NCBI RefSeq assembly: GCF_053078305.1
Contig: NZ_CP166879.1
Direction: 5' to 3' (one strand)
Length of the DNA: 64,000 nt
This document shows positions 14,883 through 48,258 of this stretch, one piece after another. The position numbers and the translations under genes were made by a program. Position 1 is the first letter of the stretch. Each line of letters opens with the position of its first letter. A model generated the notes under the pieces. It did not search any database. It was not told the origin of the DNA and worked only from the letters and a program-made list of their open reading frames with translations.

Positions 14883-14909
14883 CCCCCTCATGATGAGGGG
14901 GCTTTTTTT
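14883..14909 (+). terminator. Intrinsic terminator after yehA
   Basis: Perfect palindrome ccccctcatgatgaggggg followed by cttttttta. Confidence 0.55.
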
Positions 14910-15246
14910 AGCGATGATAAAAAATCTCACCGTCGTAGGCTTTAATGATTTTACCGTCGGTGTCGCTGATCAACACGTACGCGCCACCCATATAGGTCCA
15001 GTGGGTTCCGGCGTCAGGTGCGGGCAGGTTACGCAACTGCCACTGCTTAATGTTGTACTCATCGGTACGGTACATTTCTGGTACTGTGTCCCCTGGTTTG
15101 AAATGCTTAAAGTCAGCAATGAAACTGCTTAACTCATACTTAGAAATTCCCGAGGTATTGGTCGAACCCGCGGTGGCTGGTGCGGCCCAGGCGGCACTGG
15201 TAACCAGCAAAAGCGCACCCAGCAACATCTTATATTTAATGGTCAT
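14908..15246 (-). CDS. rcnB: Periplasmic protein involved in Ni/Co homeostasis
   Basis: Start taken at MTIKYKMLLGALLLVTSAAWA (signal peptide), inside a longer track ORF; adjacent to rcnA. Confidence 0.8.
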   Translation of the reverse strand: MTIKYKMLLGALLLVTSAAWAAPATAGSTNTSGISKYELSSFIADFKHFKPGDTVPEMYRTDEYNIKQWQLRNLPAPDAGTHWTYMGGAYVLISDTDGKIIKAYDGEIFYHR

Positions 15247-15463
15247 AAATTCTCCACTTTGGGGATCTGTAATATCAGTCGCATATCTTTCATGCCATAC
15301 AATATAACTGACAAGAGATATTTTGTTAGTCATCCCGTGATTTCGTAAAAAGTGTAAATGAAAGGATGTAGCAAAAGCATCCTCATTGAGCGAGAAGTGA
15401 GCGGAATAAGCTGATTTAAGAATCATCCTGGGCTAAAAGGATAGCGAAGCCCAGGTGATTGTT

Positions 15464-16288
15464 TTATCTCATAATACCCATAAAGCCATGCACTCCCATA
15501 TACACCCCAACTAAGCCAATCAACAGACTGGAAAAATAGGGGGCGCGTTTAGCGAGAGTGTTAAATCCGCTCCAGCGTTTTGCGACCTGCTGAACGCTGA
15601 TTGCTGCGCTAACGCCTACGGTGACAAGCGTTAACGCCAGGCCAATGCTGAAACTGACGACCAGTGTTGCGCCCAGTGTCAGGGCTTTCAACTGAATGCA
15701 AATCAACAGCACGGTAATTGCTGCCGGGCAGGGGATAAGGCCACCGGTTAAGCCAAATAGCAAAATTTGCCAGTTGGTGACCTCTCTACCATCAAAGCGT
15801 CGTTTAATGTCATTGGCATGGGCTCGTGCATGGGCATCCTGATACTCGCCATGTTCGTGATGGTGATGATGTCCATGGTCGTGGTGATCTTCGTGATCGT
15901 GATGATGATGCTCATAATCATGCCCGTGCATATTCTCCAGCCAGTTGCGTTCGCCGCGCCAGGTACGCCAGAACATCCAGAACGCGGTGCCAATAATGAT
16001 CACTGCGGAAATCAACTGGAGCCACGGTTCTGCTGATTGAGCAGTAAAGCGCTTGCTGATCACCATCCCGCCAAAGGCAATCAACCAGACCACCGCGGTA
16101 TGCGAAATAGTTGCTGCCAGTCCGAGCATCACCGCCTGTTTAATGGTGCCTTTGATGGCGATGATAAACGCCGCCATCATCGTTTTTGAGTGCCCTGGTT
16201 CCAGGCCATGAAGCGCACCAAGTAAGATGGCGCTGGGGATGAAGAACCAGGCGTTTCCTTGCTGAAGAAGAGTTGTAAATTCGGTCAT
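15464..16288 (-). CDS. rcnA: Nickel/cobalt efflux permease
   Basis: 274-aa membrane protein with a very histidine-rich loop (HGHDYEHHHHDHEDHHDHGHHHHHEHGEY). Confidence 0.92.
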   Translation of the reverse strand: MTEFTTLLQQGNAWFFIPSAILLGALHGLEPGHSKTMMAAFIIAIKGTIKQAVMLGLAATISHTAVVWLIAFGGMVISKRFTAQSAEPWLQLISAVIIIGTAFWMFWRTWRGERNWLENMHGHDYEHHHHDHEDHHDHGHHHHHEHGEYQDAHARAHANDIKRRFDGREVTNWQILLFGLTGGLIPCPAAITVLLICIQLKALTLGATLVVSFSIGLALTLVTVGVSAAISVQQVAKRWSGFNTLAKRAPYFSSLLIGLVGVYMGVHGFMGIMR

Positions 16289-16325
16289 GATAATAATTCT
16301 TAGTATTAATTAGGTAATCTGATTC

Positions 16326-16360
16326 TACTCCCCCCCAGTACCTGATACTACCCCCCAGTA
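16326..16360. promoter_or_regulatory. Two RcnR operator sites (TACT-G/C tract-AGTA) in the rcnA–rcnR divergent promoter region
   Basis: tactcccccccagta (16326-16340) and tactaccccccagta (16346-16360). These match the G-tract palindromes I recall as RcnR binding sites. Confidence 0.7.
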
Positions 16361-16408
16361 GATTAATAGTGCTATGATTTTTCATATTCTTGTTAACCAG
16401 GTGTTGCC

Positions 16409-16681
16409 ATGTCTCATACAATCCGTGATAAACAGAAACTGAAAGCGCGTGCCAGTAAGATTCAGGGCCAGGTCGTGGCGCTCAAGAATATGCTCGACGA
16501 GCCGCACGAATGCGCTGCAGTTTTACAACAGATTGCTGCTATCCGTGGCGCGGTAAACGGTCTGATGCGGGAAGTGATTAAAGGTCATCTAACGGAACAT
16601 ATCGTTCACCAGGGGGATGAGCTAAAACGTGAAGAAGATCTGGATGTCGTTCTGAAGGTGCTGGATTCATATATCAAATAA
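16409..16681 (+). CDS. rcnR: Ni/Co-responsive transcriptional repressor (CsoR/RcnR family)
   Basis: 90 aa; divergent from rcnA. Confidence 0.9.
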
Positions 16682-16770
16682 TTTATTAACGCTATTGTAA
16701 AACTGCCGTTTTTCCTCGTTTACAACGCGTGCGCTGGACATTACCATCTTCCTCTGCGATTTATCATCGC

Positions 16771-16903
16771 AACCAAACGACTCGGGGTGCCCTTCTGCGT
16801 GAAGGCTGAGAAATACCCGTATCACCTGATCTGGATAATGCCAGCGTAGGGAAGTCACGGACCACCAGGTCATTGCTTCTTCACGCTATGGCAGGAGCAA
16901 ACT
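16771..16903 (+). ncRNA. TPP (thi-box) riboswitch in the thiM leader
   Basis: The leader aaccaaacgactcggggtgcccttctgcgtgaaggctgagaaatacccgtatcacctgatctggataatgccagcgtagggaa contains the conserved thi-box elements (ctgaga, acctgatctggataatgccagcg) immediately upstream of the thiM ATG. Confidence 0.85.
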
Positions 16904-17692
16904 ATGCAAGTCGACCTGCTGAGTTCCGCGCAATCTGCGCACACGTTACACCTTTTTCACCAACATTCCCCTCTTGTGCACTGCATGACCAACGATGTGG
17001 TGCAAACCTTTACTGCCAATACCTTGCTGGCGCTCGGTGCATCGCCAGCGATGGTTATCGAAACCGAAGAGGCCAGTCAGTTTGCGGCTATTGCCAGTGC
17101 GTTGCTGATTAACGTTGGCACGCTGACGCAGCTACGCGCACAGGCGATGTGTGCCGCCGTTGAGCAAGCAAAAAGCTCTCAAACACCCTGGACGCTTGAT
17201 CCAGTAGCGGTTGGTGCGCTCGATTATCGTCGCCGTTTTTGTCTGGAAGTTCTGTCTCATAAGCCAACCGCCATACGTGGTAATGCTTCGGAAATCATGG
17301 CATTAGCTGGCATTGCTAATGGCGGACGGGGAGTGGATACCACTGACGCCGCAGCTAACGCGATACCCGCTGCACAAACACTGGCACGGGAAACTGGCGC
17401 AATCGTCGTGGTCACTGGCGAGATGGATTATGTTACCGATGGACATCGTATCATTGGTATTCACGGTGGCGATCCGTTAATGACCAAAGTGGTAGGAACT
17501 GGCTGTGCATTATCGGCGGTTGTCGCTGCCTGCTGTGCGTTACCAGGCGATACGCTGGAAAATGTCGCATCTGCCTGTCACTGGATGAAACAAGCCGGAG
17601 AGCGCGCAGTCGCCAGAAGCGAGGGGCCAGGCAGTTTTGTTCCACATTTCCTTGATGCGCTCTGGCAATTGACGCAGGAGGTGCAGGCATGA
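16904..17692 (+). CDS. thiM: Hydroxyethylthiazole kinase
   Basis: 262 aa; follows the TPP riboswitch and overlaps thiD by 4 bp. Confidence 0.93.
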
Positions 17693-33109: not shown

Positions 33110-33196
33110 AAAAAATAAGCCCGTGTAAGGGAGATTACACAGGCTAAGGAGGTGGTTCCTGGTACAGCTAGCATTTTATGGGTTATGTTTTTCAGC
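33110..33196 (-). ncRNA. cyaR: CyaR (RyeE) Hfq-dependent small RNA
   Basis: The minus strand reads gctgaaaaacataacccataaaatgctagctgtaccaggaaccacctccttagcctgtgtaatctcccttacacgggcttatttttt, which matches the CyaR sequence as I remember it, including its terminator hairpin and U-tail. Confidence 0.85.
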
Positions 33197-33280
33197 GAAA
33201 CGGATGATAACCTTAATAAATGCAGCTGTATGTGATCGGTTTCTAAGAATTTTCCATCCGGGAAAAATAATCGAAATTAA

Positions 33281-47254: not shown

Positions 47255-47400
47255 GATTTCAGCGGGATGCTGAAACGGGAAAGCCCCTCCCGAGGAAGGG
47301 GTCTTAAATAAGGAAAGGGTCATGATGAAGATACTCATCATCGTGGTGCTCTTAGTGATTAGCTACCCAGCATACTAAGACTACCAGGGCGGGGGAAACC
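47255..47400 (-). ncRNA. Sib-family antisense RNA, copy 1 (ends approximate)
   Basis: Placed by analogy: Sib RNAs are transcribed opposite to, and fully overlap, the ibs ORF. Ends cannot be fixed from sequence alone. Confidence 0.4.
47322..47378 (+). CDS. Ibs-family type I toxin, copy 1 (18 aa: MMKILIIVVLLVISYPAY)
   Basis: Mini-ORF preceded by aaggaaagggtc; the peptide has the characteristic Ibs hydrophobic sequence. Confidence 0.8.
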   Translation: MMKILIIVVLLVISYPAY

Positions 47401-47582
47401 CCGCTCTACCCTCACTCCTGAAAGTATGCCTTCACGTTCAGAATGTCAATCCGCAGGCTTTGCAGTCTGCGATCCTGCCAGCAAATATTCTTTGCGAGAC
47501 GTTACGCAATAATAACACAGGAAACTATTTTATCTACGCGTTAGCGATAGACTGAATTCAGGGCGAAAGGAGGTAAGCCGAC

Positions 47583-47728
47583 GATTTCAGCGGGACGCTG
47601 AAACGGGAAAGCCCCTCCCGAGGAAGGGGCCTTAAATAAGGAAAGGGTCATGATGAAGTGGATCATCATCGTGGTGCGCTTAGTCATAAGCTTCCCGGCT
47701 TACTAAGACTACCAGGGCGGGGGAAACC
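47583..47728 (-). ncRNA. Sib-family antisense RNA, copy 2 (ends approximate)
   Basis: As copy 1. Confidence 0.4.
47650..47706 (+). CDS. Ibs-family type I toxin, copy 2 (18 aa: MMKWIIIVVRLVISFPAY)
   Basis: Same position within repeat unit 2. Confidence 0.8.
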   Translation: MMKWIIIVVRLVISFPAY

Positions 47729-47919
47729 CCGCTCTACCCTCACTCCTGAAAGTATGCCTTCACGATAAGATTGTCAATCTGCAGGCTTTGCAGTCTGCGA
47801 TCCTGCCAGCAAATATTCTTTGCGAGTCGTTACGCAATAATCATAGAGGGAACTATTTTGTTCACGCGTTAGCGATAGACTGCATTCAGGGCGAAAGGAG
47901 GTAAGCCGACGATTTCAGC

Positions 47920-48070
47920 GGGACGCTGAAACGGGAAACACTCTCCCGGAGAAGAGGGCTTTTAATAAGGAAAGGGTTATGATGAAGCACGTCATCATAC
48001 TGGTGATACTCTTGGTGATTAGCTTCCAGGCTTACTAAGAACACCAGGGGGAGGGGGAAACCTCTCCCTA
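47920..48070 (-). ncRNA. Sib-family antisense RNA, copy 3 (ends approximate)
   Basis: As copy 1. Confidence 0.4.
47989..48048 (+). CDS. Ibs-family type I toxin, copy 3 (19 aa: MMKHVIILVILLVISFQAY)
   Basis: Same position within repeat unit 3. Confidence 0.8.
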
Positions 48071-48258
48071 ACCCTCACTCCTGAAATTATGTCACTCCGC
48101 CCTTAGTGTCAATCGACGGCTCTCCGTTCTTGCGAGGCGAATAGCAAAATTTTCTGCGCCGCCGGGCCTAATTCTGAAAGTTTCTTCGTTTGCTCTTATT
48201 TCATTATTGCAATCGGTATGATACCGGACCTCAATAATTCTCTAAGAAAGGATTTCTT

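Follow-up and report, generated by a model that had tools for sequence, protein, structure and literature searches.

How are the efflux gene rcnA and the repressor gene rcnR, which face away from each other across a short spacer, controlled, and are the two G-tract elements between them operator sites for RcnR itself? The window, meaning the whole stretch of DNA that was analysed (64,000 nucleotides of contig NZ_CP166879.1, RefSeq assembly GCF_053078305.1), contains this spacer at positions 16289-16408, and a first-pass annotation had read it as the divergent control region of the two genes, with a pair of palindromic RcnR operators. We put the probability that the region is the shared operator-promoter of the Escherichia coli rcnR/rcnAB nickel-cobalt efflux system at about 97%. 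The element is an already known one, a characterised RcnR operator pair that is strongly conserved and ordinary.

The divergent locus and its G-tract sites

The open reading frame listing and a read of positions 15200-17600 show that 16289-16408 is exactly the 120-bp spacer between the divergent starts of rcnA (274 amino acids, start codon CAT at 16286-16288) and rcnR (90 amino acids, ATG at 16409). The identities given to these genes in the first-pass annotation are upheld by NCBIfam, Pfam and RefSeq (Table 1). RcnA scores 556 bits against the NCBIfam nickel/cobalt efflux transporter model (curated cut-off 195) and RcnR scores 195 bits against the RcnR equivalog (curated cut-off 138), while Pfam assigns RcnA to NicO, RcnR to Trns_repr_metal (PF02583) and the next gene downstream of rcnA to RcnB. 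The metal ligands His3, Cys35, His60 and His64 of RcnR are intact, as is the RASK motif at residues 14-17; in the literature on W-X-Y-Z motifs, H-C-H-H is the ligand motif that defines RcnR. The PDB copy searched holds no structure of RcnR or of RcnR with DNA, and the nearest solved proteins are FrmR (5lcy, 5lbm) and InrS (5fmn).

The locus is that of the E. coli K-12 tandem type-1 operator, and the K-12 record has the same gene order: yehA, rcnB, rcnA, rcnR, TPP riboswitch, thiM, thiD. Of 5426 complete E. coli genomes, 5363 match a 401-bp query spanning the spacer, and RefSeq annotates rcnA/rcnR in every match. Compared with K-12, RcnR carries one substitution (K27N) and RcnA three (G100S, D134H in the His-rich loop, and S227G), and the spacer differs at two bases, 16312 (A for C) and 16315 (T for C), both of which lie outside the sites. 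Transcription from the major rcnA promoter starts at 16315, with a G in K-12 and an A here. There is no base difference from K-12 in either site, in the spacing between them or in any mapped promoter element.

Three RNA features lie elsewhere in the window. The TPP riboswitch (16773-16869, plus strand; Rfam RF00059, 71 bits), upstream of thiM-thiD, has a counterpart in the K-12 annotation. Positions 47307-48112 on the minus strand hold three Sib antitoxin RNA genes in tandem (RF00113, 136-147 bits each) at a spacing of about 330 bp, where K-12 presumably has two Sib genes at the corresponding locus, and the CyaR/RyeE small RNA is found at 33113-33198 on the minus strand (RF00112, 101 bits).

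Table 1. Genes, operator sites and promoters of the rcnA-rcnR region in window coordinates; site positions in the promoter rows are relative to the transcription start.
Feature	Position	Strand	Sequence or elements	Basis or relation
rcnB, periplasmic accessory protein, downstream of rcnA	14908-15246	minus		Pfam RcnB and RefSeq annotation of the K-12 locus
rcnA, Ni/Co efflux permease (NicO family), regulated target	15464-16288	minus	His-rich loop	NCBIfam, Pfam, RefSeq
7-1-7 palindrome-like box	16288-16302		TGATAATAATTCTTA	Overlaps the rcnA ribosome-binding region and start codon
rcnA major promoter	start 16315	minus	27-nt leader; -10 TAGAAT, complement of 16322-16327	Site 1 at -25 to -11; site 2 at -45 to -31
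RcnR operator site 1, rcnA-proximal	16326-16340	minus	TACTCCCCCCCAGTA; TACT-G7-AGTA (TACT-C7-AGTA on plus)	Exact motif, conservation
rcnA minor promoter	start 16336	minus	48-nt leader; -10-like TAGTAT, complement of 16345-16350	Site 1 at -4 to +11; site 2 at -24 to -10
RcnR operator site 2, rcnR-proximal	16346-16360	minus	TACTACCCCCCAGTA; TACT-G6-T-AGTA (TACT-A-C6-AGTA on plus)	Exact motif, conservation
rcnR promoter	start A16386	plus	23-nt leader; extended -10 TGcTATGAT, 16370-16378	Site 1 at -60 to -46; site 2 at -40 to -26
rcnR, Ni(II)/Co(II)-responsive repressor, CsoR/RcnR family	16409-16681	plus		NCBIfam, Pfam

The presence of two G-tract sites between rcnA and rcnR is confirmed. Each is 15 bp long with a 7-nt core, and each matches the published motif TACTGGGGGGNAGTA (TACT-G6-N-AGTA) on the minus strand with no mismatch. 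Allowing up to two mismatches yields no further match to this motif in the 64-kb window (0.14 expected), and the looser pattern TACT-N7-AGTA occurs twice in the 64 kb, both times in the spacer, where 0.22 matches are expected. Two matches to TACTGGGGGGNAGTA were found in none of 100 shuffled sequences. These expected counts and the shuffles rule out a chance origin of the pair.

A closer look at the two sites modifies their first description as palindromes 20 bp apart with cores of six or seven C/G residues. The figure of 20 bp holds as the start-to-start, or centre-to-centre, distance but not as the gap, which is 5 bp from edge to edge. The inverted repeat is limited to the 4-nt TACT/AGTA arms and does not extend to the whole site; with an asymmetric C tract and a common orientation, the two sites form a direct tandem repeat whose unit is itself asymmetric. 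A repeat search independently returned the sites as a 15-nt direct repeat, 93% identical, at a 20-bp spacing. The G/C tract itself is present, but with an A ahead of its C6 run on the plus strand site 2 makes both cores 7 nt, rather than 6-7 nt of pure G/C. The attribution to RcnR is supported by the exact published motif, by the gene identities and by the near-identity of the spacer to that of K-12, and the label of expected core regulation is fitting for an RcnR operator that is already known.

Promoter overlap and conservation of the spacer

Published transcription starts, one for rcnR and two for rcnA, were mapped onto the window together with their upstream sequences (Kim et al., 2012; PMC3415461, Table S1), with 25 reads for the major rcnA start and 12 for the minor one. 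The -10 hexamers in Table 1 were inferred from start-site position and conservation. A sigma-70 consensus scan of the spacer recovered none of the three experimentally mapped promoters and gave a single candidate at 16393-16422, which we rejected, as it straddles the rcnR start codon and fits no mapped start site. The scan is uninformative, and the -10 assignments therefore rest on the published start sites and on conservation.

With the starts in place, the sites prove to lie over core elements of the promoters in both directions, as expected of a shared operator. At the two rcnA promoters they span from the -10 through the spacer to the -35 region, and at the rcnR promoter they cover the -35 region. 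The -10 element of the major rcnA promoter has two bases in common with the outer arm of site 1, and the AGTA arm of site 2 supplies the -10-like hexamer of the minor promoter.

To measure conservation, 80 rcnR loci were taken from species-representative genomes that range from Escherichia to Vibrio and encode repressors 74-99% identical; their 79 distinct upstream regions were aligned with MAFFT, and the mean frequency of the commonest base served as the score. The columns of site 1 average 0.99 and those of site 2 average 0.94, compared with 0.66 for the 5-bp gap between them and 0.44-0.58 for the remaining stretches of the spacer. In most of the 80 loci, rcnR is preceded by both exact motifs at the 20-bp distance. 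A tolerant census finds no site in 1 locus, one in 12, two in 59 and three in 8, and 63 of 75 neighbouring site pairs keep the 20-bp spacing. The sites and their register are thus under strong purifying selection, a pattern that bears the signature of a constrained protein-binding site with a helical register held at about two turns.

The same arrangement extends to the E. coli population and to plasmids. Of 5426 E. coli genomes, 5311 contain the 70-bp operator region at a coverage of at least 80%, and identity is 95% or higher in nearly all of them. About 409 plasmid records contain an rcnR whose product shares 90-95% identity with RcnR of the window, and on one IncHI2 plasmid, p48880_mcr of Enterobacter hormaechei (L083), the rcnR-rcnA pair lies beside pcoS with a two-site operator in the 20-bp register. 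Further away, a Ralstonia locus with a repressor 61% identical has one TACT-C6-T-AGTA adjoining a divergent rcnA.

The overlap with the promoters raises the question of whether the conserved motifs are mainly promoter elements, with the AGTA arms kept as parts of TAGAAT and TAGTAT, rather than an operator. Both rcnA -10 hexamers do overlap site arms, and A16322, just beyond site 1, is 100% conserved, as are T16326, A16327, T16373 and A16374 among the -10 bases, with G16371 and T16378 at 99% and T16370 at 92%. The C/G tracts, however, lie in promoter spacers, which are normally free to evolve, and are nonetheless 94-99% conserved, while the distal TACT arms belong to no -10 element. The same motif also stands beside rcnR homologs in other promoter contexts (Ralstonia, Morganella), and direct binding by RcnR is reported in the literature, as relayed by later papers. 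Taken as a replacement for the operator, the promoter explanation is very unlikely. The two roles are compatible and not mutually exclusive, and their overlap is how repression works.

A second alternative treats the C7 and C6 runs as phase-variation tracts, in which slipped-strand changes of length would switch rcnA or rcnR on and off. Variants of tract length do exist, namely C6 (L017), C8 (L048, L075) and, at site 2, C7 (L037) and C5 (L026), but the length is constant in about 75 of the 80 species-level loci, the 70-bp region is near-invariant across more than 5300 E. coli genomes, and the changes seen within E. coli are deletions of whole 20-bp units instead of single-base slippage. Given tract lengths that are near-constant both across species and in the E. 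coli population, phase variation is rejected as exceedingly improbable.

The notion that a paralogous protein of the CsoR/RcnR family, for example the formaldehyde sensor FrmR, is the physiological ligand in place of RcnR has next to no probability: G/C-tract sites are recognised by the whole family, FrmR is the closest solved relative, and RcnR of the window scores 75 bits against the NCBIfam FrmR model (below its cut-off of 133), but in all 80 loci and on plasmids it is rcnR, not frmR, that accompanies the sites, frmR is not among the neighbouring genes here, and the literature assigns the sites to RcnR.

Copy number of the 20-bp unit and a box at the rcnA start codon

Within the operator, the number of 20-bp units varies. 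E. coli 97_3250 has a 100-bp spacer (L082, 2464-2563) that has lost exactly one unit, leaving a single hybrid site. Among 5426 complete E. coli assemblies, 9 carry this one-site allele at 100% identity, and one strain accounts for two of them. Single-site spacers are also seen in an Enterobacter sp. (L041), Edwardsiella anguillarum (L069), Erwinia psidii (L071) and Ralstonia, and Morganella has one full site and a degenerate second unit (these last two among L073-L077 and L084). Since single-site spacers occur naturally, the tandem arrangement is common but not obligatory.

Expansion is seen as well. In a Kosakonia/Phytobacter clade (L049, L051-L054, L059, L063, L066), a third unit, AACT-C7-AGTT, with weaker arms follows site 2 by 21 bp and precedes the rcnR -10 element, at about -64 from the rcnR ATG; this unit is degenerate in L050 and L060. 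The representative of Escherichia whittamii (L010) has a 150-bp deletion that removes both operators, all promoters and the first rcnA codons, so that what is left of rcnA abuts the start of rcnR. The deletion falls between two imperfect direct repeats, AACCAGG(C/T)GTT, at 16245-16261 and 16395-16411 of the window.

A second conserved element lies at the other end of the spacer, where the 7-1-7 box of Table 1 is kept as TGA(G/T)AAT-N-ATTCT(T/C)A in about 46 of 75 loci. It agrees with the Fur-family 7-1-7 consensus at 12 of 14 positions and with the Fur 19-mer at 14 of 19, a score of at least 14 being reached at 10 of about 128,000 window positions, the box among them. Several of the equally good Fur matches are artefacts of His-codon repeats inside rcnA (around 15895-15907), and the best Fur-consensus matches of the window (15 of 19) fall in the codon repeats of the His-rich loop at 15895-15925, a compositional artefact. 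On the minus, or mRNA, strand the box reads TAAGAA, a plausible ribosome-binding site. An RNA hairpin at 16288-16302 is unlikely by reasoning from the sequence, as the 7-1-7 loop is too small and the arms are imperfect in E. coli.

The published record on iron and rcnA is mixed. A published iModulon study places rcnA in the Fur-2 iModulon, and Koch et al. (2007), as cited in later work, reported an iron connection. The K-12 expression table of the iModulon study, which presumably compares wild type with a fur deletion, gives no significant change for rcnA, and the gene was not found in the other supplementary files examined from that study, nor in a Fur-site survey. The box could be either a ribosome-binding region or an operator of a Fur-family or other dimeric regulator. 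If the latter is true, a second operator at the rcnA start could explain the reported iron link of the gene.

It is doubtful that the box as a second operator and the 20-bp unit as a module of one to three copies make up a possibly undescribed pair of regulatory features. What is mildly new in this analysis is limited to how the number of units compares across loci and to the conserved box where rcnA begins.

Repression by RcnR and related operators

Much of how the operator pair works has been described. Apo-RcnR binds two TACT-G6-N-AGTA sites in the rcnA-rcnR spacer (Iwig and Chivers, 2009; Blaha et al., 2011; both as cited in PMC7055735, PMC3902906 and PMC7105576). According to the same secondary sources, the type-1 operator is a tandem of two sites with one RcnR tetramer per site (1:1), RcnR contacts the TACT/AGTA arms through the minor groove, and the unbroken G tract has A-form character that is used for shape recognition. 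Repression of both rcnA and rcnR by RcnR through a shared operator is stated in the title of Blaha et al. (2011), and the operator has been footprinted, with boundaries known here through secondary citations. For Salmonella RcnR, the metal-bound form has an affinity for the rcnA operator that is lower than that of apo-RcnR by a factor of at least 90. The operator has also been used in synthetic cobalt-inducible circuits and to calibrate cellular metal set-points. RcnR is also said to wrap the flanking DNA, as the title of Iwig and Chivers (2009) suggests.

Binding by apo-RcnR and release by metal are reported for the K-12 sequence, which is the same across the sites, and by that identity both should hold here. 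Without metal, RcnR tetramers would occupy both type-1 sites, one per site as described in the literature, recognising both the TACT/AGTA arms and the uninterrupted G tract with its unusual shape. As the sites cover core elements of back-to-back promoters, bound RcnR would keep RNA polymerase off rcnA and rcnR alike; the start sites and the binding are published, and we infer that steric occlusion of polymerase is the mode of repression at each promoter. Binding of Ni(II) or Co(II) would then lower the affinity of RcnR for DNA and derepress both genes, after which RcnAB would export the metal and newly made RcnR would reset the switch.

The operators of other members of the family show how this arrangement is set apart. 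The type-2 operators of CsoR from Streptomyces lividans and Mycobacterium tuberculosis serve repressors of the same fold family and share G/C tracts and AT-rich inverted arms ending in GTA, with A-form character implicated in recognition. They contain, however, two short G/C tracts with 2-4 bases between them, about 11 bp between the arms and two tetramers per site, whereas here each site has one uninterrupted tract (C7 or C6), arms separated by 7 bp and, as reported in the secondary sources, one tetramer per site. With one unbroken tract and 7 bp between the arms, the sites do not belong to the type-2 class. The operator-promoters of FrmR/frmRAB and InrS/nrsD follow the same logic of derepression by an effector, but the effector is formaldehyde for FrmR and Ni only for InrS, and their W-X-Y-Z ligand motifs differ from that of RcnR. 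No genes of a frmR- or InrS-type system are found at this locus.

As a discovery, the result carries little weight. The reading from sequence did correctly identify a real regulatory element. The analysis also yields a map, in window coordinates, of the two sites, the three start sites and the -10 elements. The comparative picture, with an invariant motif, a 20-bp register and one to three copies, could guide work on operator multiplicity versus repression strength. If the unit does act as a module, its copy number could tune the Ni/Co set-point or the balance of rcnA and rcnR expression.
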